64,000 nt of DNA from the IMG/VR virus record IMGVR_UViG_3300029787_000018, positions 1-64,000 of that record; one strand, given 5' to 3'. This DNA comes from a virus. This document shows positions 15,444 to 46,284 of the stretch, one piece after another. The notes beneath the pieces were generated by a model. The model was not told the origin of the DNA, did no database searches, and saw only the letters and a list, made by a program, of their open reading frames with translations. The position numbers were made by a program, and so were the translations under genes. Every line of letters begins with the position of its first letter. Position 1 is the stretch's first letter.

Positions 15444-15471
15444 TATCATGTATCATTGCTATTAAATTTAG

Positions 15472-15503
15472 AAAAGCCTGTTTATAATAAACAGGCTTTT
15501 TTA
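15472..15503 (+). terminator. Intrinsic terminator
   Basis: AAAAGCCTGTTTAT-A-ATAAACAGGCTTTT followed by Ts. Confidence 0.75.
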
Positions 15504-15542
15504 TTAACCTACTTTTTTTATTAACTTTTTAAAACAGATAAA

Positions 15543-16334
15543 ATGAAAAGATTATTATTAGTGTTTAGCACATTTATTTTATTATCTAGTTGTAGTAAAG
15601 ATGAAATTAAATTAACCGAACAACGTTATGGTTATTTAAAATTCAATACTAATTATGCAGATGTAACAACATCTAAAACACCTGTTCCTGAGTGTTCCGA
15701 AGAAACTCCTATATCCATACATTATAAAATGGTAAATTCAGAAGGTGTGGACTATTCTAAAACTTTGGGAATTGAAGTTTTTGGAAATAAGTTTAATATA
15801 GACCCTTTTATATTAGATGAAGGAGAGTATTTAGTTACCGATATTACATTATTAGACTCTAATGGAGAAGTTACACATGTTGTACCGGATGAAGTGGACC
15901 CTAGATTTCCATTTTCACAATTAGTATCTAAAAGTGTACCATTCGATATTAGTATTACAGCAGGTGAAACAACTAATGAAGCAATAGAGGTTATTTGCTA
16001 TACTGAACAAGAATTCGTAAGTTTTAATGGAGAACTTGGATTTGACGGAGATGCTTCAAAGTTTATTTCAATAGGAATTTACGTAGGTATAACATCCGTA
16101 GAATGCGTATCCACTATAGGAATATCTACGTTTAATGGTAGGTCTGAAGTAATATTACCTATACAATCTGATTCACCTATGATATTTCCTATACCAGCTT
16201 GGAAAAGTTTCAGCATTAGAGCATATGATGCAGATGGAAATGTAGTTTGGGAAAGATTAGATGAACCCGGAAAAGAACCAGACTTTTTACTAACTGCTGG
16301 GGAATTTTATTATATAAGTCCAAATTGTAACTAA
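15543..16334 (+). CDS. Lipoprotein
   Basis: MKR-hydrophobic-LSSC lipobox followed by SKDE, typical of Bacteroidota surface lipoproteins. Confidence 0.75.
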   Translation: MKRLLLVFSTFILLSSCSKDEIKLTEQRYGYLKFNTNYADVTTSKTPVPECSEETPISIHYKMVNSEGVDYSKTLGIEVFGNKFNIDPFILDEGEYLVTDITLLDSNGEVTHVVPDEVDPRFPFSQLVSKSVPFDISITAGETTNEAIEVICYTEQEFVSFNGELGFDGDASKFISIGIYVGITSVECVSTIGISTFNGRSEVILPIQSDSPMIFPIPAWKSFSIRAYDADGNVVWERLDEPGKEPDFLLTAGEFYYISPNCN

Positions 16335-30316: not shown

Positions 30317-30555
30317 GCGATAGACTTAATACTGCCAAAGATTTATTAGCTAAGCATAAACGTAAATCTGAAATTACTTTTACGCCACTTGCCGAAAAGA
30401 TATTTGACGTAGGCTTTTATATAGGAATGTTGGCGTATACGGAGTTTATGGAAGAAACAATTGATTTACCAAAAGATATAAGTGTTGATCAATTAAAATT
30501 AATGAACGATGAAATCGATTCGTTCTTTGATAATTTACTAGATGATAAAAATTAG
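30313..30555 (+). CDS. Hypothetical protein
   Basis: 80-aa ORF with ATGA overlap. Confidence 0.55.
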   Translation: MSDRLNTAKDLLAKHKRKSEITFTPLAEKIFDVGFYIGMLAYTEFMEETIDLPKDISVDQLKLMNDEIDSFFDNLLDDKN

Positions 30556-30910
30556 GAAAGACACTACGGAATATCAGCTAAACGCCCAAAAGTATTGTAT
30601 TGATAATAAAATAGATGTCGATACTACAAATGATCAAACGGGTTGGGCGATATGGATAACTTTTCCTGACGGTACCGATGAAGTATATGCTTGTTTTCTT
30701 TTGGAAGATGAAATGACAAAGCAGTATTGGAACGCTATTACATATGCAGCGGGATTATGGTGGGATAGGCAAAAAGCTTCTACCACCGTAAAAACGCCAC
30801 CGGCTGTTCCAAAAGTGCCTTCGGTACCCAAAATTCCTAAAGTTCCAAAGGTTCCATCTGTACCTCAGATACCTAGAGTTCCAAAAGTTCCTCAAATTCC
30901 CAAAAATTAA
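30542..30910 (+). CDS. Protein with (Px[VI])n tail
   Basis: C-terminal PAVPKVPSVPKIPKVPKVPSVPQIPRVPKVPQIP. Confidence 0.65.
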   Translation: MIKIRKDTTEYQLNAQKYCIDNKIDVDTTNDQTGWAIWITFPDGTDEVYACFLLEDEMTKQYWNAITYAAGLWWDRQKASTTVKTPPAVPKVPSVPKIPKVPKVPSVPQIPRVPKVPQIPKN

Positions 30911-30925
30911 TACTAACTTTATAGT

Positions 30926-31390
30926 ATGTTTAGAATTGTAAACACAAAGCGTTCAAATGAAAAAGGTCAAGAATACTTGCTTAGTAGTAAACACATAATT
31001 CCGACTACTTTCTTTAAGTATTTAGACCACCTTATCATTAATGTTATTGAAATGGATCTTAATAATAAAAAGAATATTAAGATTTTTGTAAAACAAGGTG
31101 TATCGGAAGAAGAAGCCGTTAACAGGGTTTCCGATATGATGTTGATATTTATGGATAATCATTACATACAAAATGACCCGATATCAGGACCTTATTTTAT
31201 AGAGAAAGTAAAAGAAGAGGTTTACCCTATGCCCAATGTAAATAGGAAAAAATCAAAATCTGAAATCAAGGAGGAAATAAGTAACCTTGAAACCAGAATG
31301 AACAATGCCGTTAGCAGAGAGAATTACGAAGAAGCTGCTAAGCTTAGAGATCAAATAGAGAAACTTAATGGCAAAGAAACGTCCATATAA
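30926..31390 (+). CDS. UvrB/UvrC (UVR) motif protein
   Basis: LETRMNNAVSRENYEEAAKLRDQI. Confidence 0.75.
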   Translation: MFRIVNTKRSNEKGQEYLLSSKHIIPTTFFKYLDHLIINVIEMDLNNKKNIKIFVKQGVSEEEAVNRVSDMMLIFMDNHYIQNDPISGPYFIEKVKEEVYPMPNVNRKKSKSEIKEEISNLETRMNNAVSRENYEEAAKLRDQIEKLNGKETSI

Positions 31391-31547
31391 AAGACGTTTT
31401 TTAAGAGGTCGTAAATACGACTTTATGGCTAAGTATGCTTACTCTCTAGGTTTTGATAATGTTACCGATGCGATAAACTTTATGGGTTCTGGAAGAATAT
31501 TCAGAAACTCTTTTAATGAATGGTGCAAATACAAACGTTTAAAATAA
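31368..31547 (+). CDS. Small basic protein (not in ORF track)
   Basis: Manual translation MAKKRPYKRRFLRG...WCKYKRLK*, 59 aa. Confidence 0.45.
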   Translation: MAKKRPYKRRFLRGRKYDFMAKYAYSLGFDNVTDAINFMGSGRIFRNSFNEWCKYKRLK

Positions 31548-31690
31548 ATTTATGGAAGAAGAAACATTTCAATGGATAATTATAGCTGGATTGATCATAG
31601 CTGTTGTAGTTCTGTTCTACAGAACACCTAAAAAAGAACAGGTAGATACTTTGGAAAATAAGACCAGGTATCTTTCTGAAAACGATTAGT

Positions 31691-31724
31691 AAAATGTCCA
31701 GTTTATTAATAAACTGGACATTTT
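31691..31724. terminator. Perfect 34-bp palindrome/terminator at the head of the cassette array
   Basis: AAAATGTCCAGTTTATTAATAAACTGGACATTTT. Confidence 0.8.
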
Positions 31725-31853
31725 TATTTATTTAAACCAATAGATATAACGTACTAGGAAATATGACCTATGTGCGTTTTTCTACATACGTAAAACTTAT
31801 GGCAAATAATAAATATGACGACTTTGATAAAAGTAGGATATTAAGATTGTTTC

Positions 31854-32078
31854 ATGGACTTACAAAAAATGTTTGAAGTGGTCGAAAACACAGACCGTAA
31901 AAGATGGGAATTTACCCCAAATGAAGGCGTGAACGAAACAAGTTACACAGTAGCCTTTTATGAATGTGATAATGAACCTGATGCGTGGATAGCTTTATAT
32001 TTAGCAATATCCAAAAAAAACCAAAAGACAGCAAGTAAGCGAGGTTTAAGCATTTTTTATATGCATTGTTATCAATAG
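31854..32078 (+). CDS. Hypothetical protein reading into the left end of cassette A
   Basis: 74-aa ORF whose stop lies inside GTTATCAATAG. Confidence 0.5.
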   Translation: MDLQKMFEVVENTDRKRWEFTPNEGVNETSYTVAFYECDNEPDAWIALYLAISKKNQKTASKRGLSIFYMHCYQ

Positions 32079-32388
32079 TTAATGATTAATCACAAACCAC
32101 AATAGATATGCCAGATTATAAATTTTTTCCAATGAATGAGCTACCTGAAAAAAGCGTAGACGACCCAAGTTTTAGCAAGACAGTACTTGTCTATGATAAA
32201 ACCGATAATAACCACATATTCGAGAACCTTGGCTACTACGATTTTGAAGATAGTGAATGGACTCATTTTGGTGATGAAAGTATGAATTTAATATGTTGGT
32301 GTTATGTACCTGACCCGAAAAAATTTATAAGCTCGAACGATTTAGAAATTGCCTTACATAGAGGTTACCGACCTTAATTATTGGTAAC
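32068..32388 (+). mobile_element. Cassette A
   Basis: GTTATCAATAGTTAA (32068-32082) / TTAATTATTGGTAAC (32374-32388), 13/15 complementary. Confidence 0.8.
32108..32377 (+). CDS. Cassette A gene, DUF551-like hypothetical protein
   Basis: ELPE...SKTVLVY...LGYYDF...W...ICWCYVP. Confidence 0.65.
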   Translation: MPDYKFFPMNELPEKSVDDPSFSKTVLVYDKTDNNHIFENLGYYDFEDSEWTHFGDESMNLICWCYVPDPKKFISSNDLEIALHRGYRP

Positions 32389-32498
32389 GTTAAAATGTAT
32401 GGTGCGTTTTGCACGAACTTAATTAAATATTAAACAACTTTTGAATTATGGAAAATACAACGCAGAAAATCAACGATAAATGCACTATACATAGTGTT
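32386..32498 (+). repeat. Junction hairpin J1 (attC-like)
   Basis: AAC..ATGTATGGTGCGTTT (32395-32409) / AAATGCACTATACAT (32478-32492)..GTT. Confidence 0.85.
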
Positions 32499-32753
32499 CT
32501 TAATAGTGCCGTTGTTTGGGATACTCTCGAAAACTTTGATGCAAGCACTACACTTGCTCAACACGCTTTTGTAAGTGTTCAAAGAGGTAAATATTATGAA
32601 GATAAGTATGACGGAAACAAGTCTTTATGCGGAAAGATTGGGGCACACGATGGCGACAAATTCATTGCTTTAAAAGACTTTAACCCTGAAGTATTGAACG
32701 AAGAAAAAGCGTGTAAGACCTGCCTTAAAATATATAAAAAAGGTATTATTTAG
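32448..32753 (+). CDS. Cassette B gene, putative Zn-binding protein; start codon lies in the J1 loop
   Basis: H..SLCG...ACKTCLK; N-terminal MENTTQKINDKCTIHS is encoded by the junction. Confidence 0.65.
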   Translation: MENTTQKINDKCTIHSVLNSAVVWDTLENFDASTTLAQHAFVSVQRGKYYEDKYDGNKSLCGKIGAHDGDKFIALKDFNPEVLNEEKACKTCLKIYKKGII

Positions 32754-32756
32754 AAC
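32496..32756 (+). mobile_element. Cassette B
   Basis: GTTCTTAATAGTGCC / GGTATTATTTAGAAC, 12/15 complementary. Confidence 0.8.
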
Positions 32757-32798
32757 GTTGAGTATAAACCCTCGTTTTAATGGGGTTTATACATTGTT
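32754..32798 (+). repeat. Junction hairpin J2 (minimal, 45 bp)
   Basis: AACGTTGA-GTATAAACCC-TCGTTTTAATG-GGGTTTATAC-ATT-GTT. Confidence 0.9.
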
Positions 32799-33284
32799 AC
32801 CCTTAGTACGGGTTTGAAGAAATAAATTAACTTAAAAACAGAAATAAAATGAAAATTGAATTAACAGTAAAAAAGGAATTTGAAGTAAAGACATTATTAG
32901 TTGAAGCCAATGTAAGATATTGGGAAGATGCAACTGTAAATGGTGTTGAAGACGAAAACGGTGATTTAATACCTTGTAAATTAGGCGACACTTGGAAGCC
33001 GATTATTGATTTAGAAACTGGATTAATAACTAATTGGGAAAAAGGAAAGGAAGCGGATATACATTACAAAGTATGTGATGCAGGTGAATATTGGTTGCAA
33101 GATGAAAACGGTGAAAAGATTGTAAAGGCAAAAGGATATTATGTACCTGACTTTTTAGCAATTGACGATAGTGGATTGGGCGACTACATTATTATGAAAG
33201 TTGACAAAGATGGTAAAATCAACAATTGGCGATTTGATAGCGAACCATTTACTAACGAAGACGAAGATTAGTATTAAGGGTAAC
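32796..33284 (+). mobile_element. Cassette C
   Basis: GTTACCCTTAGTAC / GTATTAAGGGTAAC, 13/14 complementary. Confidence 0.85.
32849..33271 (+). CDS. Cassette C gene, phage hypothetical protein
   Basis: VRYWEDATVNG...W.PIIDLETG.I.NW...HYKVCDAG.Y...GYYVP...GDYI. Confidence 0.8.
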   Translation: MKIELTVKKEFEVKTLLVEANVRYWEDATVNGVEDENGDLIPCKLGDTWKPIIDLETGLITNWEKGKEADIHYKVCDAGEYWLQDENGEKIVKAKGYYVPDFLAIDDSGLGDYIIMKVDKDGKINNWRFDSEPFTNEDED

Positions 33285-33468
33285 GATTAATCTATGATTA
33301 GTCGCAGTCTTAAACCTAAACACAATAAATATGGAATATAAAAAAATATTAACCGTTGCCGATTTAAGGGATGTTAACGATTCTTATGAGAAGGGTGAAA
33401 TATTATACTCAAAAATGGTAGAACTTCTAAACAAGCGCATATCTGAGCGATTAATTATAGATGTTGTT
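33282..33468 (+). repeat. Junction hairpin J3 with an ORF in its loop
   Basis: ATCTATGATTAGTCGC (33290-33305) / GCGATTAATTATAGAT (33447-33462). Confidence 0.85.
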
Positions 33469-33495
33469 ACCTACTGTGGCGATTTAATAAACTAA
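33331..33495 (+). CDS. 54-aa ORF starting in the J3 loop and ending in cassette D (not in ORF track)
   Basis: Manual translation MEYKKILTVADLRDVNDSYEKGEILYSKMVELLNKRISERLIIDVVTYCGDLIN*; A-rich leader. Confidence 0.55.
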   Translation: MEYKKILTVADLRDVNDSYEKGEILYSKMVELLNKRISERLIIDVVTYCGDLIN

Positions 33496-33760
33496 AATTT
33501 TGATAAATGACTGAAACTAAAAATACATACGAGCCAAATGGCACAGAAGAAGAAGTAAAACTTGGTATTTTGCATAATGTAAACGGCTACTGGGTAAGCA
33601 ACGAGGGAACTAGACAGCAACCAAACTACCACGTATGGATACCAAGTGTAACGCACTCGGTTTGCGACAGTGCCTATGCAGAAATAGACCTTGCCGTTTG
33701 TAGATGTAATTATTTGGCGAAAAATAAGATTGAGGCACATTACCAGCCATTGTAGGTAAC
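33466..33760 (+). mobile_element. Cassette D
   Basis: GTTACCTACTGTGGC / GCCATTGTAGGTAAC, 13/15 complementary. Confidence 0.85.
33507..33755 (+). CDS. Cassette D gene, hypothetical protein
   Basis: 82-aa ORF; stop lies inside the right-hand repeat. Confidence 0.65.
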   Translation: MTETKNTYEPNGTEEEVKLGILHNVNGYWVSNEGTRQQPNYHVWIPSVTHSVCDSAYAEIDLAVCRCNYLAKNKIEAHYQPL

Positions 33761-33882
33761 GGCAAAGTATAAGATTTCGGTTGCGTTTAGGCGACTGGCT
33801 TAATTAAATGTGCGTTACTCTGATGGTGTAGAAATACCTCACAGACAATGACAAACTAAGCAACTGAATTTTATACATTGTT
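33758..33882 (+). repeat. Junction hairpin J4
   Basis: GTATAAGATTTCGGTTGC (33767-33784) / GCAACTGAATTTTATAC (33860-33876), one extrahelical base. Confidence 0.85.
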
Positions 33883-34668
33883 ACCCACTTTTTAAAAAGC
33901 CGTGCGTGAGGTACGAGGGCAAACACATACAGATTATGAAATACACAGGAAGTAAAAATAGAATTTCAAAATACATATTACCAGTAATGCTTGAAGGTAG
34001 AACCAATGAAACTTGGGTTGAGCCTTTTGTTGGTGGTGCAAATATGATTGATAAAGTTGAAGGAAAAAGAATTGGTTTTGATAATAATGAATATTTAATA
34101 GAGCTATACCATTATTTACAAAATGGAGGTTTAATAGTTAATAGGTTTATAACAAAAGAACAATGGCACAATGTAAAAGAAAATATTGAAAATTACCCAA
34201 AATGGTATGTTGGTTTAGTAGGCGTTTTAGGTTCTTATAATGGTAATTGGTTTAGTGCTTATGGTGGTGGAAGTAAAACTAAAGAAGGTAATTATAGAAA
34301 CTACTTTGATGAAGGTATAAGAGGATTATTAAAACAAGATTTATCTAATATTCAATTTGTATTTTCTGATTATAAAAATATTAAAATACCAAATAATAGT
34401 ATTATTTATTGCGACCCGCCATACCAACTAAAAAACAAAAGATATAAAGAGCATTTTGATAGTGAAGTGTTTTTTGATTGGTTTAGAAATAAAGCAAAAG
34501 AAGGACATAAAGTTTTTGTTTCTGAATATAATGCACCAAAGGATTTTAAATGTATTTGGCAAAAAGAAATAAGTAAAACTAACCCAAAGCAAAAAGTAAA
34601 CAAAATAGAAAAATTATTTACGATTGAGTAAGCCGTAAAGATTGGCGGCTTTTTACATTGTGGGTAAC
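33880..34668 (+). mobile_element. Cassette E
   Basis: GTTACCCACTTTTTAAAAAGCCG / CGGCTTTTTACATTGTGGGTAAC, 20/23 complementary. Confidence 0.85.
33936..34631 (+). CDS. Cassette E gene, D12-class (Dam-like) N6-adenine DNA methyltransferase
   Basis: MKY.GSK, VEPFVGGAN, IYCDPPY, VFVSEY; start moved to ATG 33936. Confidence 0.9.
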   Translation: MKYTGSKNRISKYILPVMLEGRTNETWVEPFVGGANMIDKVEGKRIGFDNNEYLIELYHYLQNGGLIVNRFITKEQWHNVKENIENYPKWYVGLVGVLGSYNGNWFSAYGGGSKTKEGNYRNYFDEGIRGLLKQDLSNIQFVFSDYKNIKIPNNSIIYCDPPYQLKNKRYKEHFDSEVFFDWFRNKAKEGHKVFVSEYNAPKDFKCIWQKEISKTNPKQKVNKIEKLFTIE

Positions 34669-34718
34669 AATTCGCTATGAGTACTACAGCATCACATAAC
34701 TAACTAAAAATCAATAGT

Positions 34719-34931
34719 ATGCGTGTAAATGTAAAATTTGAAGCGGTATGGCAAATAAAGGGTAATACAGACTATAAAGTTACTAAACGCAAAATGGTAA
34801 TTAATTCTAAAACAGAAAAACTATTAACCTATAACAGAAGAGGTTATTTTATAATGGGTAAATATTTAAAGAAAAAAGATTTAAACCATTATTTAGAAAA
34901 GATACCTGAAGAAAATAATTTGCCATTTTAA
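34719..34931 (+). CDS. Small basic beta-rich protein at the distal end of the array
   Basis: 70 aa; WQIK...YKVT....INSKT.KLL...RGYFI.GKY, loosely NUMOD4-like. Confidence 0.65.
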   Translation: MRVNVKFEAVWQIKGNTDYKVTKRKMVINSKTEKLLTYNRRGYFIMGKYLKKKDLNHYLEKIPEENNLPF

Positions 34932-34938
34932 TAAATAA

Positions 34939-35012
34939 ACCAACTGACAAATAATCTTTGACAGTTGGTGTAATTAAGTATTTCAACTACTCGAAAATAT
35001 AGAGTAGTTCTT
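34939..35012. terminator. Two hairpins at the convergence of the rightward and leftward blocks
   Basis: ACCAACTG..CAGTTGGT and AACTACTC..GAGTAGTT. Confidence 0.55.
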
Positions 35013-35013
35013 T

Positions 35014-38000
35014 TTAAAAAATAGACTCTACCATTGATTTAGTTGTTCTTACTGCAGAAGGTATAAGCTTGTATTCGATCTTATCCAAATCCATGTAGTA
35101 ATTGGCATCCCAATAAGCACTCTCTGCAAACCTATTATCGGTGCTCAATGCAAATCCCCCAATAAGTCCTGACATTGCCAGACCTTTTAGCCCACTATCA
35201 AGTCGTTTGGCTAGCTCAGGACTTTCTTTTTGAAGCTTTTTACGATATTCTATATAATCTTTCGGATTCATGCTTTGAACCTCTGAAACCGTCTTAAAAA
35301 GCATTCTTAGCGAACCGATATGTTCGTTACCATAAATATCTATATCCTGTTTCGCGAATCTATCGTTTACAACAGTAGGTAAGAATCTTGAAAACTGCAA
35401 CATCATTCTACCTAAGCTATATTGCTGAATCAATCTTTGATCAGTAGCTTGATACCCTTTCCCTTGTGATTTCTTCACCTCGTTCTCCAACATGATCAAC
35501 CTTTGTTGATCAATAGGCTCTTCCATAGGTTTATACTCCCCGTTCTCGTCAAACTTGTTCCATTCGGCTTCGGTAAGCATACCCGCCATCTGAACACCTT
35601 GAATCCATTTCTCGCTCCACGTCATTGGCATAAGTGCCAAATCGCCCAAGAAATTATCAAGTCTCCCTTTTGAGGACATAGATACGTTATCGTATACATT
35701 GATATCCATAAAGTTCAACGTCTTTAGAATCTTCTGTGTTCTTTTCATTCGTTTTACAATATCAAATGGATTGGTCGTACTGGTATCCATACCCCAAAAA
35801 CGGCTTTCTCCTTTTGCCCATTCTTTTACAGAACCGTTTTTAATGTTATGGTACTTACCAGAGGCTACGTTACCCATGAAATAACTAGCGTTAAAACCTA
35901 ACTGCCAAAATAGGTTCATCTTAGTCAATAGGTCTACAACCTTATCTCCTTTTTCACCTAATAGGTTTTGTCGCTTGCCTTTTAAGTAGTAATCTTTCCA
36001 GTTCATTTTTACGTACTTACCGGCATTCTTTAAACCTTTGTCCTGGTTCAATGCAAGGACACCATCTACAACAGCTTGCATGCTCTTGAATCCTGCAAAG
36101 TTTTCATTACCGTTAACGAACAACGTAGAATGAACATAGCTGTTAAGCGCATGGTTTAAATCCATAGAAGGCATTTCGGTAGCTTTATTACTACGTGTAT
36201 TGGCAAATCGGTTCATAATACCGAAAGACAATGCAGAATCCATTTCAAAATCGGAAACTTCAATATCCGAACCGTCTTCATTTTTGCCGCTTTTTAAGAG
36301 CTTCTTAGCCTTGTTCTTTAAAAGAATGTAGTCTTTAATCTGCTTGGCATTATTCTTAGTGCTGGCCGACATAGCAGAGTATATGTTATCGATATCCTTA
36401 AAGCTAACAAGCTCTTTTTTGCCAGTGTCCGGATTATCGATATATAGCATTACTTCGTTTAAGGCGTCATCGCTATTTTTCGTAGATTGGAGCAACCCGA
36501 GAAGTCCTCTATTTGAAAAAGATTCAAATGTGCCCATAGAGGTGTGAGGTATATAGCCTCTCCTGACTCTTTTACCGTCTGAGGTAGAAGAAGGGGCAAG
36601 TTCTCCGGTAATGTCAGTGAAAGTTTTGTAGAAGTTGTATTCGGCTTCGGATAATCTGCCTTGCTCTTTAAGTTTGTTGATTTCTTCATTGCTTTTTAGT
36701 TTGAATTCTTTAATGACCTTACCCTCGGAAACAATCTCGTTCTCTTCTACAAGATTACCGTAAAGTATGTTGTAAAGGTCTTTTCTGTTGTGAATATAAC
36801 TATAATAGAAACGTTTTAAAATATCTATAGGGTTACCGCTATCGAACATGAAACCGAACTTCTCTTTGTAAAGTGCGTTCGTAGTTTCGTTGATCCTGGT
36901 AACGTATTTTTTCTTTTCGTTCTGAAACTGTTTCTCCATAGCTGTCATATTCCTTACCATACCTTGTATCTCTGGATGATTGGAAGGAATATTGTTAGCC
37001 ATTAACCAAGTTTGTACAGGACCAAGGTCTTCATTGGTTTTTGTACGTCCTGTCAACTTTGTTTGTTGAGCGGATATCTTTGCCGCCAACGCCTTTACTA
37101 TAGGTGTGGTAATATTGGCATACGCATAGGCATTTTTGGAACCGTACGTTCTATATAGTTCCATAAGCTTTTCGGGGCTGAACTGATTAAAGTCCTTACC
37201 CCTGAAGCTTTTGTTATATATTTCGTTGGCTCTCTTTTTTTCCTTTACGTATTCCTGATAAGCCTGGTTCTTGGATTCCTCTGTTTGAAACTTGTTGAAC
37301 TCCATGGCATCGTTGAACGTCTGCTTGTCCATAAAGTCCTGTGACTTGTAATCCCAGAACTCTTCACGAGCTTCCATGCCTATCGGCTCAGCTTTTTTTT
37401 TAACACGTGGAACAGGATTGTTGGAACTAGAAGTAATGGTAACTAAATCTATATCCAATTGGTTGTTCGTGCGTCTAGGAACTTTTTTTATCATTTTTGT
37501 AGCGTTCTTGGCTAAATGATTAAGTCTGTTCAACGTGTTTGAAATAGGCTTGTTGAATACTTCGGACTTGTTTCCTATAAACTTGTAAAGGTTCATATTG
37601 CCCTTGGCATCCCTTGACTTGAAGTAGAACTGTGTATTGTTCTCCAACGCTGCTCTGAACTGTGGGTTCTTTTGCATTTCTATCATAGCCTTTTCAGGTG
37701 ATAGCCCTTTAATGTCAAAGAAAGGAATATTGTTACGTACACCATTGATATCTTTAAGCATCAATATTTCTTCCAATTCCCTAAGCTCTGGACGCGTATA
37801 GGTTTTATCGTTTTTCTCCTTGAAATCTTGGTTAAGGTTCTCTACCAACATTTTGTTCGTGAACGAGTCGGTAATAGGCAACATGGACAAAGGACTTCCC
37901 CAACCGTTTTTGGTAAGGTCATAATAAACAAGTTTATATTGCAAGTCTGCAGGAAGTTCCGAAAACTCTTTGTTCATTCTACGTACCTCTTGGGTAGTAA

Positions 38001-41000
38001 GGCTTTCATCAAAGAAACTACTGTTCATAGAAATATAAGGCTTGTTTCCATCGAACTTCATATTAAGCCCTTGCGTAAGCAATAGATTGTTTTCAAGATT
38101 GCCTTCCATCTTAAGCCCGGCTATATATTCCGATAAATCTGCAAATACGCTGTTTTCATTTTTAGGATCAACTATTTCGGCCAACTCTTCTTTGGACATA
38201 TTGTTATATCCCGAAATATTGGAATGTAGGAACTTTGAAATACTTCTGGTATACTTCTTAATCTGGTTGTCGTTCAACAGTTCCATGCCTTGCTTAACGG
38301 CCAAGCCTTGTAGCAACTTGGTAATAGCGGGTCTATAAACCAAATCTATTTGTTTGGTATGTTCCAATGTAGCTTCTGCAGTATTCAAATACCTTTTTAA
38401 ATCTGGATTACTAGCCATTTCTGCAGGTATGTTCATCGTAGAATCCTCATTGTTCATAATACGCTTGAACTCTCCTATCTGCTTTTCCAACAAATATGGG
38501 TTGGTTTCAATACCGTTATGACCAGCCATAATCTTACTGACCTTTTGAATGTCGGCATTGACTTCATCCATTTTCATTATTAGGTTAATAATGTTGGACT
38601 GGTTTTTCTGGCTATAGAACTCTTTGTTATTGGTATTGGTAACTACGCCACCTGTAGAATTGGAATCATATTTTACGGTACCGTTATTACCATTGGAAAC
38701 AGACCTTTTAGCTAATTCTGTCAACATTTGCTTTCTAGGGGTGTAACCGTGGAACGCAGAATTGTTTTCGTTCATTATCGAAACATATTCTTTTACCATT
38801 GGAGCGTTCATCATAACGGCTACATCTTCAATAGGAATGTTGAGGTTGACCATTAAGGTAAAAGCCGATACCGTATGTTCGTTTATATTCAATGCATCCG
38901 CTGCATTTTCGTTAAGGTTGTCCAGAATAAGGTTGGCTACCAATGCAGATTTATGGTTACGGCTTTGATCACCTTCTCCCATATCCTCGAATATCTGGTA
39001 ATTGGTATTGTTTACCATTATACCTTCTTTCATATTGGCTCTGTACGCGGCAAGCGTATTGGCAATTCTATGCAAGTTGAAAACGGTACCGATATTCCTT
39101 TTGGCGATCATGGAATCCTCATAGGACTTTCTTCTGTACGATGGAGAAAATGCCAATGGCTGTTCTTTTACATAGTTAGGGAACTGCTCTTTGATATGTT
39201 CCTTTAACTTTTTACCTTCTCCGGAAGTGTCCATTGCCGTTTGAATGAACGGTGCCATTTTTTCACTAAGCCATAGCTTTTCCATACGGTCTATGACTTC
39301 GTTCATTTTTTTGTTTTTTCCTTTATGTTGGATGAACAAGGCATCACCATCTAAATCCGCACCTATTGTCTTACTGAAAGAAGTAGGTACCTGTACTTGG
39401 TTTCCTTTACCAACGGCAAACTCAACAGCTTCGAATATACCTGTAAAGTTTGGTCCGTTTGAAGGAACACGAGTGGCTATTACCGTTTCCCCAGGAACAT
39501 AATAACCGATTACCTTACCGTCTTTAAGAACGGTCTGTGTTTCAAGTTTTGGCGTTGTTTTATCCCTATTTTTATTAAGGTGTGCTACAAACTTGTCCGC
39601 AGCTTCTTTTAAACGCATAAGGTCGTTTTCTTGCGGTGTTTTGGTCTTGTCAAGATAACCGTTCGTATCAGTGGCTTTGATAGCCATTTCGCCTAATTTA
39701 CTATCAGGTGTATAGTATTTTCTGGCTCTTACCTTTCCATTTAAATGTTGGGGCAATACAATCTCCGCCCTATTAAGTCCTGTAGAAGCTTGCGTATAAC
39801 CGTTAAGCTCATTACTTCCTTTTATTTCTCCATCAACAGGCAATTCCCATCCATAACTAGACTTCTGGTGCGCATACGTACCAGCTATTCTTAACTTGTT
39901 ACCTTTTGACTTTAAAGTGTTCGCTAATTGATTGGAAACGATCTCTATTGCTCTAGGGTGTAGTATACCATATTTTTCGATAACGAACCTTTGGACTTGA
40001 TCCATGTCCTCTTTGTTCATTTCCTTGGTAACTATTTTATTATATGTAGCAACATCTTTCTTTTTAAGTTCATTGGTAACCTCGTTAAGGTTTTCGGACA
40101 TCATATCCGATATCAGTTCTTGTATCGCTTCGGCTTCTTCAAGATGCCCAAGATTTAAAGAATGAACTAATAGCGAGTTCATTTGCTGTACAGGTAACGT
40201 TACTTCATCGGTAACTTTATCCATTACTTGTTGTGGTCCAAAGTTGTAACCACTGATACCCATAAAACCACCTTTGGAATCATACATGATGTTGTCTTGG
40301 AACTCACCCGCTTTGGTAACTCCCTCTTCGTTCATAAGCTCGTTTAAGTATGGTGCATTCTCCATACCCTTGCCTTTTTGAATTCCCGTTTTCTCAGAAG
40401 AAAAAGGAATTGCTATCGGAAAGTAGTTCTCTAGACCATCGGTAAAGTTATCACTAGGCATTGCACCATTGTTCTTTTTAGCGTATGCATCGAACATTTT
40501 AGCACGTCTGGCTTTCATATGTTCGTATAATCCTTTGAACTTGTAGTTCTGATCAACAAAATCTTGGTCGATTATAGTAGTATATCCTTTAAGCAATACG
40601 GTGTTACCTCTAAAGTTCGGGTTGTCTTTTTCTACAGAGTAGTTAAGGAACTTGAAACCTTCATTCAAATCAAATACACCTTTACCAACATTAGCCCAGC
40701 GCTCAGCATCTTCTCTAAGTATGAACATACCACCATCGGTAGAAGCTTCATTATCTTTAGGGTCTTTAAAGAATATAGGCTCAAACTTTAAGTTCTTGTT
40801 TACGGATATAACAGGACTACCGGCATTCTTTAAACGCTTGGCAATACTTGATATCTTAATGTTAGGAGATACTACCTCAGCCATGAACAGACCGTTCATA
40901 ATTTGATTGTATACATATCCTTTTACAATTTTTTCTCCTTTAGGATTAAGCTTTCCGTTTTTATCGAACATAGATTTTAAAGAATCTATCTTCATAAGTT

Positions 41001-44000
41001 CCTTGCCGTTTTTATTAAAGAAATCAACTTCTTTTTCTCCTTCTTTAATCAACGATAAGTTAAACTGACGTTTACTTATATTTTCCTCAGATATATTTCT
41101 GTAAATATTATAAGCCGCAGTAGTAGTATCGTTGGACATATCAAGCCTTTTAGTAGGCATGTAATACTTTCTAGGACTATCACCGAAAACACCGACGTTC
41201 GCCAAATATGTTTTTTTGTTAAGTCCGGAAGCGTACATCATAAAGTCCTCAAAGGACTGTTCGTATGAAGTACTGTCCTCAAATGCATTGGCATTGTTGC
41301 TTACGCTATCATCGATACCGGTATAGTAAACAAGGTCTGGTTTGTTTCCAGCTACTACACTATCATAGAAATTGTCCAAAAATTGATTAGGAACGGGTTT
41401 GCTGTACGCTTTTGAACGAGTGATATGAGAATACCTTTTTATAAAATCGGCTTTAGGAATCACGTCACCGTCCTTATTAGGGCGTAATGAATCGTACATC
41501 TGGTCAAGCTCTTTGGTCATGTGGTTGTTCATCATACGAACAGGAACCATATTTCCTTTGGCATTCTCTACAACACTATCTTGGGTAAACTCCCTATTAG
41601 TAGCCATAATAGCATTGGCAATAGGTCTAAAGTTATAAGGGTACATATACCTGTTACCGTTCTTGGCGGGTTTACCTAAATGCTTGTCGTTATCGATAAA
41701 GCTTTTAAGAACTGTTACAGGGCTATAGTAAGTACCTTTTACGTTGATAAAACCATTTTCCAATATATCCATCATTTTTACGTCAGGAGGTGCCATAAAT
41801 CGATATGCCTTTACGTAATCTTCATTAGTAGCAGTATCGTCTTTTATTCTAGCTACGATACCCTCGAACTCCGACCATTGATCACCTAATAAATGACCGC
41901 TCTTTTTAAGCATGTAATCTCTGGCTTTAGCCATATTGTCCATCATGTCTTGTGCTTGGCTCTGCTCTCTTTTAGATAAAGATTCTTCAATAGAGTGGTT
42001 TATTTTGCCATCGTTCTCCGACATAACGGACTTAACGGCATTTACCATTCTATAGTTGGAGAACAGCGTCCATGTAGAATTCAAAAGAACGGTTTTGGCT
42101 TCCGGTGCACGTAGTTCCAAAAATTTGTTGAATGCTTGGATATCCGCATGAGGACTGTTTTCAAGTGCGTCTATAAAATCAACGGAGTTGTTTGTATTGG
42201 CAGCCAATTGGAACATCTTGTACCTAAACTCTTTCTTATCGAATAAAGGACCTTGCTTGCCCCATATGCTTTTTCTAAGCCTAATGGCACGATTGTACTC
42301 TTTTACAAAGTTGTTGATTATTTTGGTAGCCTTAGCTGTTCTGGTCATAAAGCTTTTTTCCGCTATACTGATAACGTTATCGGCATCCTCTTGGTTGTCC
42401 GCAACCTCATCTAGTATCTGGTCTAAAGCATCCTCTTTTCTAGTGAACAAGTTCTTGTTCTCTTCCGGGTCAAAATTGGCAACTTCTTCTTCAAGCCTGC
42501 TCTTGACCTTTACCCTACGTTGCATGATGTTTGCATCGTAAGCTGTGGAGCGAGATTCAAAACCTATTTCGGTAGCTTCTATTCTAGGTACTTCTTTAAG
42601 GAACTCCATAACGATGTAATCCCTCATATTATCAATTGAAAGATCTTGGCCGTCGTTAAGCTTTTGAATAAGCTCTTGGCTTTCCTGTAAGTAAGTAGGT
42701 TCAGATTTAGCCTTGGTATCTATCATCTTCCACCACTTACGGGTAGTATTGGTTCTTTTAGCTTCTGTACTAAGACCAAAGAAATTATTGTACTTTTTAG
42801 AAAGAGGACCTTGCATAGTAGCTACAAAGGCTTCTTCCAGAATGTATTTCTGCTCGGCCAAAGGTAAAATAGATGCTCCGTACTCAACTAGGTCTTCCTC
42901 GGTAGGTTTACCTGAGAACGTTCCTACTTCTTTACTTTCACCAACACCAAAATTATATAGAACATAATCTGGATATCTTTCAGCTATTTCATTTACAAGC
43001 TTTTTGTTTGCCATGACCTGTTCCAGGACCGCTTTGGTTTCTGGTCTGTCCTTTGCGAATCTGTAGAAGATGTGTGTCATTTCGTGCATGAACACTTCGC
43101 CTTGGTTCCATTCATCGCTACGAACGAATACTGCTGCAGAAACAGCAAGTCCGGTACCTCGTATACCCAACGCTTTTACAAGGTCGTCAAGTATGTATGC
43201 ATTTACCCTACTATCAGCTTTAGGGAACATAAAGTTCAAACGCTGATTAATGGCAACCATTTTATCAAGGTCGCTAGGACTGTTACGTATACGTCCTATA
43301 ATAGGAGCTTCGGCTCTGTTCTCTTCAAGAGGTTCGTTGTTCTCCTCAAAGGTTACGAACTCGTCGGCTTCATTTTGTTCAGATAACTCTGAATTTGATT
43401 CAGCTAATTCATCGCCTCTTGATTCCATAAAAGGACCAACTCCTTTTTTATAAGCATCTATAGCACTACTAAGTTTCTTTTTGATCTTAGTAGCCTGGCT
43501 TTTGATTTGCTTCTTTGTTTTGTTAACCTGCTTTGGCTCGGCTTGCTTGTTAACAAAGTTCTGGAACTGCTTGGATTTATCCTTGGCGGTTTCTTTTACC
43601 TTGTCAAAAGTATCGTTGAATTTGTCTACTATTTCCTGCTCTTTGGGAGTCAACGATTTTTGACCTTTTATTTTAGCTACGATATCATCGTACGTCTTTT
43701 TTGCTAAACCTTTAGGTAATGCTTTATTAGCTTTAGCCTTAGCTTTTTCTGCTAGTTCTGAAATACGTTTCTTAACCTCTTTGGCACGTTGCTCTCTTTT
43801 AGAAGCATCTTCCTTAGATTCTTTTTTCTTGGGCTTACTAAGTGTTTCGGACTCTTCTTCCAAATCACTAAGCTCATTTAATTCATCCTCTGTAATATCA
43901 TCTGAAACCTCACCCGTTACATCATCTGATTCTACACTATCGTTTTCCCCATTTTCTTCTCCCTGAACGTCTCCGGCAGTAGCACCATCGATTTCATTAT

Positions 44001-46284
44001 CGCCATCTGTTCCTTGTCCAGTAGGTGACGTAGGTGGTACACCTTCGCCATCTTCTCGTTGGGATTCAGTTTCTTCGGTGGTTGCAACTTCCTCGGTGGT
44101 TTCTGATTCTTCTGATACATCATCTTTGTTTTTATTAAATAGATTGTCGAAAAGGCTTTTAGCTTTATTTCCTAGTTCCGATATTTTGCCAATGGCTTTC
44201 TTGCCTATATTGGCACCGTCGTACTCCGCATTATCTTTAAGGACTTCTGCTTGGTTGTTCTTTTTAAGAATATCCTCGTTCGATTTTTGTACAAAGTATT
44301 TGTAGTCGGCTTTGGCAAGTCCCGTAGCTATAATATCCTGACCTCTTTCGTTTTTAACCTGTATAGGTTCTACAACGTTCTCAACAGCCTTACCTAGAAT
44401 AAGGTTGGCTTTGTTCGCTTGCGCTTGGGCTATACCATAAGTAAGACCCTGAATCGTTTTATCTGTTTCAGCAGTACGCTCATTGATTTCCGATTCTATT
44501 TGTTGTTCTGTAAGATTACTATTTACTAATATTTCAATAACATTTTCAAGTTTTGATTTTTCTACCTCAACCTGTTCTTGAAAGAACATTTCGGCACTAT
44601 GGTTCAAGAACAACGCATGCTTACCTCTAATGTTAAGCTGTTCGGCTTGGTTATCGAGTACCATGTAATCATCGATATCTTCTTGCATTTTTTGAGCTTC
44701 TTCCTCAGTAATAATACCTTCTTTGATAAGGTTCTGTGAATAGCTCTCGAACATTTCCGTTTTGTCCTGTAGCACCATATCCGATATGGTTTCACGCATA
44801 TGGAACTTCTGCATTTCATTGCCTTTTTCATCGGCACTATCAAAAATAGTTTTAAGGTTCTCCGTTCGGTTGTATAATTGTCTTGAACGCTCGGCATCCT
44901 TATTGATGCCCGATACTATACCAGATACACCGCCACCAAGGGCACCTAATGCAAATGCAATGGTTTTCGTTCCTTCGTTCTCTTCACTGTTATAGAACTC
45001 CATGAAACTACCGTATTCTGGTTCTGTACCCATTACGTCGCTTTCAGCCATCATAGCCGCCCAGCTTTCATAAGTCTCTTGGAAAGTTTCTTCGTAACCT
45101 TCCTGTAAAGCTTTACCCGATGCACTTACCAATTTTCTTAAAGTAGGTGAAGTCTTTGCCGTAAAAGCCTTGGATATATTTTTAAAATTCTTGCTTGAAT
45201 CAAAAGCCTGTTTACCTTTCTTGATAAGATTGGACTGCTTTAATATCTTTCCGGCATTACCGTAGGTCATACCCCATGAAAGAATATCAACAGCCATATA
45301 CTTTAGGTTGTTACTAAATGTTTTCGCTGCAATATCGGATAGTTCATCATTGGTAAACAAAGGGTTTCCGTTTTCGTCGGTAAGTTCTTTTCTTGAATTG
45401 TATGCTTCTGCAGAATTCAATAGACCGGAGATAACGTTACTTGCCATACCACCTGCAATATTCTCAACAGCGGCTCCTGCAGTATTGGTAAGTTTCCCTA
45501 AATCGGTAACAGCTTTTCCTATACCTTTTCCCGTACCAGCAACTTCCATTACTTCGTCAGCTCCACTAGCAAGTTTCTTGGAACCGTTTTTAAGTGTTCC
45601 CTTGGCATTTTTGATAAGACCTTTTTTAAGGGCTTTTCCAGCTAATGCATTACTACCTCTTTTTGCCAATGCTCCCGCACCTTTAGAAAGGAATATAAAC
45701 TCTGCTAATTGTGGAATATACTCGGCACCATGTTTAGACCAGAATTGAGGGTCGGCCAAGGTTTTGATAGAGAACTCGGGGTTTTTAAGTTCCTCTGGCA
45801 TGTACACTTGGTTGTTCTCTGAAATGCCTTCTCCTTTTTCCTGTAGGAATCTTGAAATTACGTTACCGTCGAACATATCTATACCCGGAACGGCAGAACC
45901 TACTACTTGTGCTACGTCGCCAAATCCACCGATAACGTGATCACCTATACCACGCATAAAGGAAACTCCCGCTTCGGTAACCCAATCCCTACCACTTACA
46001 TCGGCACCAACGGAATTTTCTCCCGCTTCTGGTTCGTACTGTTGCTTTGCACCTAACGGGTCGTTCTTGGATTGAACGGCACTACCTATAGACGCTTGTC
46101 TTTCTTGGGCGTTTGGAAATACGGCTTTCGGCTGTTCAGGTTCTTTAGCAGTTGGTTGTTTCGGATCGGTATTCTCTTGACCTTTCTCGGTTTGGTAATC
46201 AGGGTTGTTCTCTTCCGCTTGGGTACCCTCTTCTTCAACTCCTTGCTTTTGTAAGGAGCTGATGTAATTTTTAAAATTTGGCAT
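35014..46284 (-). CDS. Giant virion-packaged RNA polymerase polyprotein (crAss-like), with zincin-like HExxH motif
   Basis: 3756 aa; IATRVPSNG and GADLDGDALF (DxDGD two-barrel RNAP catalytic loop, about 39340); HEMTH (about 43080); cargo-like N-terminus; position after the muzzle and ejection genes. Confidence 0.85.
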   Translation of the reverse strand: MPNFKNYISSLQKQGVEEEGTQAEENNPDYQTEKGQENTDPKQPTAKEPEQPKAVFPNAQERQASIGSAVQSKNDPLGAKQQYEPEAGENSVGADVSGRDWVTEAGVSFMRGIGDHVIGGFGDVAQVVGSAVPGIDMFDGNVISRFLQEKGEGISENNQVYMPEELKNPEFSIKTLADPQFWSKHGAEYIPQLAEFIFLSKGAGALAKRGSNALAGKALKKGLIKNAKGTLKNGSKKLASGADEVMEVAGTGKGIGKAVTDLGKLTNTAGAAVENIAGGMASNVISGLLNSAEAYNSRKELTDENGNPLFTNDELSDIAAKTFSNNLKYMAVDILSWGMTYGNAGKILKQSNLIKKGKQAFDSSKNFKNISKAFTAKTSPTLRKLVSASGKALQEGYEETFQETYESWAAMMAESDVMGTEPEYGSFMEFYNSEENEGTKTIAFALGALGGGVSGIVSGINKDAERSRQLYNRTENLKTIFDSADEKGNEMQKFHMRETISDMVLQDKTEMFESYSQNLIKEGIITEEEAQKMQEDIDDYMVLDNQAEQLNIRGKHALFLNHSAEMFFQEQVEVEKSKLENVIEILVNSNLTEQQIESEINERTAETDKTIQGLTYGIAQAQANKANLILGKAVENVVEPIQVKNERGQDIIATGLAKADYKYFVQKSNEDILKKNNQAEVLKDNAEYDGANIGKKAIGKISELGNKAKSLFDNLFNKNKDDVSEESETTEEVATTEETESQREDGEGVPPTSPTGQGTDGDNEIDGATAGDVQGEENGENDSVESDDVTGEVSDDITEDELNELSDLEEESETLSKPKKKESKEDASKREQRAKEVKKRISELAEKAKAKANKALPKGLAKKTYDDIVAKIKGQKSLTPKEQEIVDKFNDTFDKVKETAKDKSKQFQNFVNKQAEPKQVNKTKKQIKSQATKIKKKLSSAIDAYKKGVGPFMESRGDELAESNSELSEQNEADEFVTFEENNEPLEENRAEAPIIGRIRNSPSDLDKMVAINQRLNFMFPKADSRVNAYILDDLVKALGIRGTGLAVSAAVFVRSDEWNQGEVFMHEMTHIFYRFAKDRPETKAVLEQVMANKKLVNEIAERYPDYVLYNFGVGESKEVGTFSGKPTEEDLVEYGASILPLAEQKYILEEAFVATMQGPLSKKYNNFFGLSTEAKRTNTTRKWWKMIDTKAKSEPTYLQESQELIQKLNDGQDLSIDNMRDYIVMEFLKEVPRIEATEIGFESRSTAYDANIMQRRVKVKSRLEEEVANFDPEENKNLFTRKEDALDQILDEVADNQEDADNVISIAEKSFMTRTAKATKIINNFVKEYNRAIRLRKSIWGKQGPLFDKKEFRYKMFQLAANTNNSVDFIDALENSPHADIQAFNKFLELRAPEAKTVLLNSTWTLFSNYRMVNAVKSVMSENDGKINHSIEESLSKREQSQAQDMMDNMAKARDYMLKKSGHLLGDQWSEFEGIVARIKDDTATNEDYVKAYRFMAPPDVKMMDILENGFINVKGTYYSPVTVLKSFIDNDKHLGKPAKNGNRYMYPYNFRPIANAIMATNREFTQDSVVENAKGNMVPVRMMNNHMTKELDQMYDSLRPNKDGDVIPKADFIKRYSHITRSKAYSKPVPNQFLDNFYDSVVAGNKPDLVYYTGIDDSVSNNANAFEDSTSYEQSFEDFMMYASGLNKKTYLANVGVFGDSPRKYYMPTKRLDMSNDTTTAAYNIYRNISEENISKRQFNLSLIKEGEKEVDFFNKNGKELMKIDSLKSMFDKNGKLNPKGEKIVKGYVYNQIMNGLFMAEVVSPNIKISSIAKRLKNAGSPVISVNKNLKFEPIFFKDPKDNEASTDGGMFILREDAERWANVGKGVFDLNEGFKFLNYSVEKDNPNFRGNTVLLKGYTTIIDQDFVDQNYKFKGLYEHMKARRAKMFDAYAKKNNGAMPSDNFTDGLENYFPIAIPFSSEKTGIQKGKGMENAPYLNELMNEEGVTKAGEFQDNIMYDSKGGFMGISGYNFGPQQVMDKVTDEVTLPVQQMNSLLVHSLNLGHLEEAEAIQELISDMMSENLNEVTNELKKKDVATYNKIVTKEMNKEDMDQVQRFVIEKYGILHPRAIEIVSNQLANTLKSKGNKLRIAGTYAHQKSSYGWELPVDGEIKGSNELNGYTQASTGLNRAEIVLPQHLNGKVRARKYYTPDSKLGEMAIKATDTNGYLDKTKTPQENDLMRLKEAADKFVAHLNKNRDKTTPKLETQTVLKDGKVIGYYVPGETVIATRVPSNGPNFTGIFEAVEFAVGKGNQVQVPTSFSKTIGADLDGDALFIQHKGKNKKMNEVIDRMEKLWLSEKMAPFIQTAMDTSGEGKKLKEHIKEQFPNYVKEQPLAFSPSYRRKSYEDSMIAKRNIGTVFNLHRIANTLAAYRANMKEGIMVNNTNYQIFEDMGEGDQSRNHKSALVANLILDNLNENAADALNINEHTVSAFTLMVNLNIPIEDVAVMMNAPMVKEYVSIMNENNSAFHGYTPRKQMLTELAKRSVSNGNNGTVKYDSNSTGGVVTNTNNKEFYSQKNQSNIINLIMKMDEVNADIQKVSKIMAGHNGIETNPYLLEKQIGEFKRIMNNEDSTMNIPAEMASNPDLKRYLNTAEATLEHTKQIDLVYRPAITKLLQGLAVKQGMELLNDNQIKKYTRSISKFLHSNISGYNNMSKEELAEIVDPKNENSVFADLSEYIAGLKMEGNLENNLLLTQGLNMKFDGNKPYISMNSSFFDESLTTQEVRRMNKEFSELPADLQYKLVYYDLTKNGWGSPLSMLPITDSFTNKMLVENLNQDFKEKNDKTYTRPELRELEEILMLKDINGVRNNIPFFDIKGLSPEKAMIEMQKNPQFRAALENNTQFYFKSRDAKGNMNLYKFIGNKSEVFNKPISNTLNRLNHLAKNATKMIKKVPRRTNNQLDIDLVTITSSSNNPVPRVKKKAEPIGMEAREEFWDYKSQDFMDKQTFNDAMEFNKFQTEESKNQAYQEYVKEKKRANEIYNKSFRGKDFNQFSPEKLMELYRTYGSKNAYAYANITTPIVKALAAKISAQQTKLTGRTKTNEDLGPVQTWLMANNIPSNHPEIQGMVRNMTAMEKQFQNEKKKYVTRINETTNALYKEKFGFMFDSGNPIDILKRFYYSYIHNRKDLYNILYGNLVEENEIVSEGKVIKEFKLKSNEEINKLKEQGRLSEAEYNFYKTFTDITGELAPSSTSDGKRVRRGYIPHTSMGTFESFSNRGLLGLLQSTKNSDDALNEVMLYIDNPDTGKKELVSFKDIDNIYSAMSASTKNNAKQIKDYILLKNKAKKLLKSGKNEDGSDIEVSDFEMDSALSFGIMNRFANTRSNKATEMPSMDLNHALNSYVHSTLFVNGNENFAGFKSMQAVVDGVLALNQDKGLKNAGKYVKMNWKDYYLKGKRQNLLGEKGDKVVDLLTKMNLFWQLGFNASYFMGNVASGKYHNIKNGSVKEWAKGESRFWGMDTSTTNPFDIVKRMKRTQKILKTLNFMDINVYDNVSMSSKGRLDNFLGDLALMPMTWSEKWIQGVQMAGMLTEAEWNKFDENGEYKPMEEPIDQQRLIMLENEVKKSQGKGYQATDQRLIQQYSLGRMMLQFSRFLPTVVNDRFAKQDIDIYGNEHIGSLRMLFKTVSEVQSMNPKDYIEYRKKLQKESPELAKRLDSGLKGLAMSGLIGGFALSTDNRFAESAYWDANYYMDLDKIEYKLIPSAVRTTKSMVESIF

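Follow-up and report, generated by a model that had tools for sequence, protein, structure and literature searches.

Hairpins of an attC-like family shared by Bacteroidota chromosomes and Flavobacteriia phages separate small phage genes and can contain predicted start codons

Integron-type recombination sites are usually seen as non-coding tails behind promoterless bacterial genes. The classical attC site has R boxes with AAC and GTT, L boxes, an unpaired central spacer and a variable terminal loop, and one of its strands folds better than the other. In class 1 integrons, attI1 and the 5′ conserved segment supply translation starts and short open reading frames (ORFs), as known for ORF-11 and the N-terminal variants of aac(6′)-Ib. 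Here we describe four hairpins, J1 to J4, situated between small genes in 64,000 nt of virus DNA (positions 1 to 64,000 of IMG/VR record IMGVR_UViG_3300029787_000018; hereafter ‘the window’). The record, 77 kb long and complete, comes from a marine metagenome. We consider it fairly probable that J1–J4 are attC-like sites of folded-DNA recombination, common to Bacteroidota chromosomes and Flavobacteriia phages, which reassort gene bodies and hairpin interiors.

Clusters of attC sites lacking integron integrases (CALINs) have been reported in virulent phages, including Polaribacter phage P12002L (PMC9892861, Front Microbiol 2023). The accessible text of that article gives two sites in P12002L, attC1 and attC2, of which attC2 recombined and is of a different sequence type. 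We found that the published attC1 primer sequence (PMC9892861) belongs to the family described here and has the box layout and the loop of J2. Since this site has already been called attC, elements of this kind are known in outline; the Bacteroidota-wide family, the flip of orientation, the long and short forms and the ORFs started inside loops appear to be undescribed in the accessible text of the article. Phage P12002L, likewise lytic and without an integrase, carries five hairpins of this family and has a long form at L129:3138–3292; its methylase gene is ∼80% identical at the DNA level to the methylase gene of the window, and a half-site such as the one at 34660–34671 of the window also stands behind its second methylase.

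Genes A, B, C and D and a Dam-type methylase gene, all small and co-oriented, close the rightward gene block of the window at 32.1–34.9 kb. They are spaced by the four imperfect inverted repeats J1–J4; the half-site follows the methylase, and all these features are on the plus strand. Each junction is laid out as xTAACG, 4–5 nt, GTATA with a private stem, a loop, the second stem half with TATAC, 3–5 nt and GTTACC. With four hairpins and a half-site in 2.3 kb, five co-oriented genes and no integrase, the locus has the composition of a CALIN. As in classical attC cassettes, genes have inverted core repeats of their own, stop codons are frequently located in or at R″, and the arrays are made of small unrelated genes. 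Unlike the classical case, the phage genes are on the folding strand, with the hairpin ahead of the gene that it accompanies (as in the B family); R′ is GTTACC instead of GTTRRRY; the private repeats are up to 12–26 nt long; breaks occur at both arms; and starts lie within the site. A shufflon or another invertase system with alternating inverted sites was rejected because all ORFs are on one strand. IS200/IS605 and REP/RAYT readings were considered as well and not adopted, no search aimed at an HUH gene having been made.

The family as a whole follows the pattern xTAACG-N4-5-GTATA...TATAC-N3-GTTAxx; it occurs in upwards of 120 genomes of Bacteroidota and in numerous contigs of Flavobacteriia phages. 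An element consists of the R box (xTAAC/GTTAxx), an asymmetric internal loop of 5 versus 3 nt, and the L box with a private stem (GTATA.../...TATAC). Short forms have a loop of ∼7–20 nt and an overall length of 56–72 nt, and long forms a loop of ∼70–80 nt and ∼130–137 nt overall. Across the family, loops of 7 to ∼140 nt are held between conserved boxes, in the manner of the variable terminal structure of attC. The R boxes of attC contain AAC and GTT; here both are conserved without exception in the 15 aligned short forms and are also present in J1–J4.

The J1–J4 hairpins are real. In the short-form stems, 24 alignment cells are changed on both sides, a number that none of 500 shuffles reached; the L boxes covary as well (GTATA/TATAC to GCTAA/TTAGC), while the internal loop keeps its constant size of 5 × 3 nt. 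Hand pairing of the host consensus suggests bulged bases. Model R1, built from the 15 aligned short forms, found 48 copies in 35 loci, and also five copies in the cultured lytic phage P12002L. In the window, R1 is confident for J2 only; the long forms J1, J3 and J4 score 10–17 bits and are supported by comparison. A scan of viral contigs with the right-arm 14-mer gave mostly chance matches, with ∼25 true elements in 114. The gapped pattern search placed the element nearly exclusively in Bacteroidota (Flavobacteriales, Saprospiraceae, Cyclobacteriaceae and Chitinophagales), and these hosts have both short (56–72 nt) and long (134–136 nt) forms.

J2 (32754–32801, 48 nt) has the sequence AACG-TTGA-GTATAAACCC / GGGTTTATAC-ATT-GTTACC. 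The original prediction, made from the window sequence alone, had described it as a minimal hairpin, and it is indeed a clean short form (58.9 bits, E 1e−13 with R1; fold z = −3.3). The hairpin of locus L060 is the same as J2 apart from compensated stem changes. J4 (33755–33885) is a long form with a 77-nt loop at 33784–33860. In run X4 the stems of J4 are unchanged, and 7 nt (TTTTTCA) take the place of the loop, with a joint from 33783 to 33861. Given this replacement and the constant length of the host long forms (134–136 nt), the loop insert may be a discrete module. The J4 loop contains TTAATTAA followed by an ATG whose frame closes after seven codons.

One hairpin occurring with a 7-nt and with a 77-nt loop, a host long form fixed at ∼135 nt and arms lying within coding sequence are what one could also expect from selfish miniature palindromes, such as miniature inverted-repeat transposable elements or the Rickettsia palindromic elements, inserted between genes or into their 5′ ends and adding in-frame peptides. 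The likeness to the Rickettsia elements lies in a palindromic repeat that adds an in-frame peptide within coding sequence; those, however, are one common sequence at many sites, whereas the present copies have only their boxes in common and invariably sit at a gene boundary. The boxes alone are conserved, the stem is private and covarying, there is no common interior, and the short/long polymorphism is confined to the loop. Copies keep one orientation per genome type, neither a target-site duplication nor a transposase was seen at them, and private inverted repeats flanking genes suit the logic of cassettes. We therefore regard such an origin as highly improbable.

Folding favours the plus strand of the element in 121 of the 127 host elements and in all 14 phage elements (mean energies −22.8 versus −16.9 kcal/mol in hosts and −18.3 versus −11.3 kcal/mol in phages). 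This is due to G·T pairs, nearly all of which have the G in the 5′ arm. In hosts, a minus-strand gene ends beside R′ in 92 of 124 elements, and the better-folding strand is antisense to the genes, the arrangement of bottom-strand folding in attC. Phages keep the asymmetry with gene orientation inverted: a gene of the same strand ends beside R″ in 10 of the 14 elements, and a gene starts after R′ in 12. As the folding strand is the sense strand in phages, the hairpin sits in the 5′ leader of the next gene.

In three of three host genomes examined, the element cluster lies 2.4–3.8 kb from a gene for a tyrosine recombinase. The best NCBIfam matches of these recombinases are integron integrase and XerA/integron integrase, and one passes NF040815. 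They differ from the recombinase of a classical integron in being Xer-like and below the IntI cut-off; a complete integron, with an IntI carrying the additional domain beside the array, was found neither in the phage nor in these hosts. A further-reaching proposal would be that Bacteroidota own an integron-like cassette system, with an Xer-like recombinase without the IntI insert, from which lytic phages of Flavobacteriia took the sites in inverted orientation as portable 5′ modules with the leader, the start codon and the first ∼20 codons; bodies and start-bearing interiors would be shuffled as two interleaved classes of module, with occasional N- or C-terminal fusions. We put this forward tentatively, as a possibility that is rather doubtful in its entirety.

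We observed chromosomes of Tenacibaculum, Polaribacter and Fluviicola (L262 at G002:C1:3344000-3362000, L263 and L264) with arrays of co-oriented genes punctuated by these hairpins. An Xer/IntI-like tyrosine recombinase is encoded at the head of each of these arrays in the same direction as the genes. In L262 the ORF of this host enzyme is at 15400–16209 on the minus strand.

Breakpoints around the junctions were read from contigs of four independent studies, each near-identical to some part of the window. They fall just after AACG (32389/90, 33281 and 33286), at GTT (32795/98 and 33465) and, in each of the four runs, at 33869 on the L′ border. Contigs of X3 and X4 match gene A up to 32389/32390 and then diverge, X3 and X8 contain gene C from 32772/32787 to 33261/33285, and in one run J3, the ORF in its loop (orf54) and gene D are kept together behind a different upstream gene. 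The 55-nt leader between the J4 right arm and the methylase ATG stands before different genes elsewhere (loose ends at 33934 and 33941). The X8 contig joins 33941 to 34646 around other sequence, and a different insert is thus placed between the same leader and the flanks with terminator and half-site. In the runs containing the phage, none of the joints seen links one junction of the window with another, a weak negative that concerns contigs only.

In the D and methylase families, homology extends from R′ to R″ only, and the hairpin interiors differ on both sides; the R′ and R″ boxes of D and of the methylase form an inverted repeat that belongs to the gene itself and covaries from phage to phage. 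The original prediction had proposed junctions as a second class of exchangeable module. This holds around D and the methylase, where hairpin interiors differ; B keeps its own hairpin in seven of seven contexts.

ORF B (32448–32753) encodes 101 aa with four Cys, belongs to no known family and has a conserved core from about residue 22 (VVW). The J1 left arm (32383–32405) comprises R″ GGTAAC(G) at 32383–32389 and L″ ATGTATGGTGC at 32395–32405; within the B family its bases covary with those of the right arm. The loop (32406–32481) contains a small hairpin, a TTAATTAA box at 32419–32426, an AT-rich leader, the B ATG at 32448 and codons 1–11, a layout that recurs in the six other B contigs. The right arm (32482–32501), composed of L′ GCACTATACAT, a spacer and R′ GTTCTT, is read as codons 12–18 of B. 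As the original prediction had it, ORF B starts between the arms of J1 and reads through the right one (codons 12–20, KCTIHSVLN), with the core GTT (32496–32498) as Val17, and has no start of its own beyond the hairpin. There is no second Met in the protein, which makes an alternative start implausible. The coordinates of the original prediction are right throughout. The R box of J1 pairs poorly in the window (GGTAAC with GTTCTT); R′ of B pairs better with the R″ that follows the B stop codon.

We found 14 homologues of B in metagenomes. In seven B contigs the J1-type stem has 16 bp; nine pairs show compensatory change and 92% of cells are paired, a result equalled by none of 500 shuffles. The non-coding left arm covaries with codons of B, and two G·U pairs are invariant. 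In these seven contexts the block of homology extends from the TAACG of the J1 left arm to the TAACG after the B stop, and the neighbours are all different. Hence the hairpin, the ATG and the N-terminus travel together with B. These left-arm breakpoints would lie where an integron-type AA|C cut is expected on the folding strand.

It had been suggested that similarity among B proteins would start at the Val encoded by GTT and be preceded by unrelated N-termini. This is refuted by the retention of the hairpin, the ATG and a homologous N-terminus in seven of seven contexts; the N-termini vary in length and are still recognisably homologous (M-E/D-N-T...K-Q-C-D/T-I-H-G/S-V). Distant homologues of B without a hairpin begin 3–10 residues ahead of the conserved core, so the first ∼20 residues of B appear to be a hairpin-derived extension and not a part of the domain. 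Longer, fused forms of B were looked for as well; none turned up, a negative of little weight. Relatives of B and of orf54 were absent from single-protein scans of viral contigs. For most homologues of B (P0002–P0012) and for those of orf54 (P0134–P0145), breakpoints were judged at the protein level.

Apart from this, a piece of the J1 loop made of leader, ATG and about three codons (window 32424–32457) was found in run X4 with different sequence on either side. Either a common promoter or initiation module or a very short exchanged segment could explain it. A Bacteroidetes-type promoter (TTG / TAnnTTTG) in the right arm and leader was considered and dropped; judged by eye, the spacing did not fit.

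The J3 hairpin (33279–33471; arms 33279–33305 and 33447–33471) has a 17-bp L stem with two G·T pairs. Its arms, both paired in the centroid fold, enclose most of orf54 (33331–33495), a 54-aa member of a small-protein family. The reading frame behaves as originally described: the R′ GTT (33466–33468) is Val46, in the same register as in B, and the stop codon (33493–33495) lies in the leader of D, 24 nt past GTTACC and 12 nt ahead of the D ATG at 33507. In the orf54 family, a conserved N-domain of ∼40 aa and an arm-like I-x-G-V-V are followed by unrelated tails. Similarity stops near the arm-encoded I-x-G-V-V, and the window tail is eight residues from the D leader. Locus L135 has a J3-like hairpin with changed yet complementary boxes around the same protein domain.

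Loop-borne starts are not limited to B and orf54. In seven distinct long-form elements an ATG occurs at +60 to +68 and an N-part of 20–24 aa is encoded by loop and arm, followed by mutually unrelated bodies. In loci L066 and L074b the stems are identical, the N-parts are alike, and the sequences diverge fully a few bases past GTTACC; one type of hairpin thus heads two unrelated genes. These cases bear out the original claim in so far as junctions carry putative starts, whereas its extension to N-terminal domains does not agree with the hairpin-encoded N-parts, which are short, of low complexity, rich in Lys, Asn, Gln and Glu, and not domain-like. Most likely these pieces are leader peptides that the phages tolerate, and a regulated combinatorial device is improbable. 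A similar role is known for attI1, a recombination site giving initiation and an N-terminus to a cassette that lacks one, the donor being in that case one attI site heading the array, and in ours a repeated attC-like hairpin between genes.

A bias in the reading frame of GTT had also been anticipated. We observed two registers: GTT is a codon in four or five families (B, the orf54/L135 family, L119a and L074c), and six others place its G at the third codon position (TTG|TTA, read as Y-T-L-L-P); the third phase was unseen in 11 families. As the sample is too small and the families are interdependent, we make no claim of frame bias. The right arm is free of stop codons in all frames in 10 of the 14 phage copies, and the left arm often provides the upstream stop. 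A three-frame stop in the left arm was considered and turned out to be a tendency only, with one or two frames blocked in most copies.

The original prediction had concluded that rearrangement would switch genes on or off or create fusions; we saw neither switching in the phage population nor a functional fusion. In its full form this idea describes a programmed combinatorial array, in which rearrangement puts junctions carrying a start or an N-domain before cassettes lacking a start. The missing start of B speaks for it, as do the placement of the same hairpin on two bodies and the different post-arm tails of the orf54 relatives; furthermore, since J1 and J3 read GTT in the same phase, an exchange at R′ would stay in frame. 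Such programming is hard to reconcile with B retaining its hairpin and N-terminus in all seven contexts, with the use of two registers and with the low complexity of the N-parts. The window tail of orf54 is eight residues read from the D leader, and the absence of joints among the window's junctions, a weak point drawn from contigs, goes in the same direction. We judge a programmed array to be very unlikely.

The data can be put together as follows under the attC-like reading. In the phage long form the loop contains an AT-rich leader, often with TTAATTAA, and a predicted start codon, and the first ∼20 codons are encoded by the loop and the 3′ arm, B being such a case. When co-infecting or related phages exchange DNA at one or the other arm, gene bodies and hairpin interiors would be reassorted. 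The route may be a host Xer/IntI-like recombinase acting on folded single strands, homologous exchange at the arms, or both; in this scheme we infer the recombining enzyme and the cut site, whereas structure, conservation, strand asymmetry, orientation, breakpoints and the positions of the start codons are established. In some exchanges a start or N-domain carried by the hairpin would acquire a new body or tail, as L066 versus L074b and orf54 ending in the D leader suggest.

Several observations weigh against the proposed recombination-site function. A PF00589 search found no tyrosine recombinase in the 77-kb phage genome. The host recombinases score 197–214 bits against a TIGR02249 cut-off of 265, and match this model in two stretches, seemingly skipping the IntI-specific insert. 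According to the accessible text of PMC9892861, P12002L attC1, a predicted attC, showed no recombination with IntI1. A single cleavage site of the integron type is at odds with breakpoints at both arms. Since Logan contigs often end at repeats, some contig ends located at arms could be assembly artefacts, loose ends inside contigs being unaffected. The translation starts at 32448 and 33331 are putative, deduced from sequence. Finally, the better-folding strand of the phage is the transcribed one, and the sense-strand G·U pairs, two of them invariant in the J1 stem, fit a role in RNA equally well.

An RNA role of the hairpins in phages remains a serious rival or an added function. In its strict version the hairpins would act mainly as RNA (terminator, processing site, 5′ stabiliser or translational control), and the breakpoints would be hot spots of homologous recombination, as for the promoter early stem-loop (PeSL) cassettes of T4-type phages. 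There too, a conserved intergenic stem-loop with a leader flanks small accessory genes and marks the mosaic breakpoints of lytic phages. The start codon in the loop with the 3′ arm within codons 12–18, a phage genome without a recombinase, breaks at both arms and the conserved leader after R′ that precedes different genes (33934 and 33941) all agree with this version. PeSLs, however, are not known to have host-chromosome copies, AAC/GTT boxes, strand asymmetry or a link to recombinases. In hosts the asymmetry is antisense to the flanking genes (the 92 of 124 elements), which makes an RNA role common to hosts and phages unlikely. The R and L box sequences are conserved beyond pairing across distant Bacteroidota families, the host clusters adjoin Xer/IntI-like recombinases, and an Rfam 15 search of 31000–35200 (E ≤ 1) gave no relevant match. 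Taken as the main explanation, an RNA role is therefore unlikely in our estimate.

What emerges under the attC-like reading is a folded site common to Bacteroidota and lytic phages, which the phages turn round to head genes and which can enclose a putative translation start. Should recombination be confirmed, it would account for the exchange of small accessory genes, anti-restriction methylases among them, between marine phages that are unrelated; it would also imply a Bacteroidota cassette system unrecognised by searches with Rfam and the NCBIfam integron-integrase model, and a recombination site able to double as a portable translation start. For viromes, the pattern AACG-N4-5-GTATA...TATAC-N3-GTTA may be of practical use as a marker of accessory-gene islands.

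The remaining genes of the array are as follows. Gene A (32108–32377) encodes 89 aa without a family assignment and stops 6 nt ahead of the J1 left arm. Gene C (32849–33271; 140 aa) has its own flanking inverted repeat, GTTACCCTTAGTAC ... GTATTAAGGGTAAC. Gene D (33507–33755; 82 aa) belongs to phrog_20712, has relatives in more than 115 metagenomic clusters, and ends with a TAG that overlaps the J4 left arm. At this stop codon (33753–33761) the homologues P0017, P0019, P0021 and P0033 have CAG or another sense codon and read GTAACG as Q-V-T and beyond. Neither Pfam nor PHROGs assigned a function to A, B, C, orf54 or a 70-aa ORF; D matched phrog_20712 only, a family of unknown function. The methylase gene (33936–34631) encodes an adenine methyltransferase of the Dam type (D12 class), and its leader and terminator form an inverted repeat around the gene. 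The terminal half-site GTGGGTAACAAT (34660–34671) complements the J4 right arm plus 3 nt and has no partner arm downstream.

Outside the array, a minus-strand ORF of 3,756 aa (35014–46284) converges on the array end; it has an H-E-x-x-H motif and no PHROG match. Upstream, the gene at 30542–30910 closes with 9-nt repeats encoding P-x-V/I-P-K units (30806–30913), and a perfect 34-nt palindrome with zero spacer (31691–31724) lies between two small ORFs.

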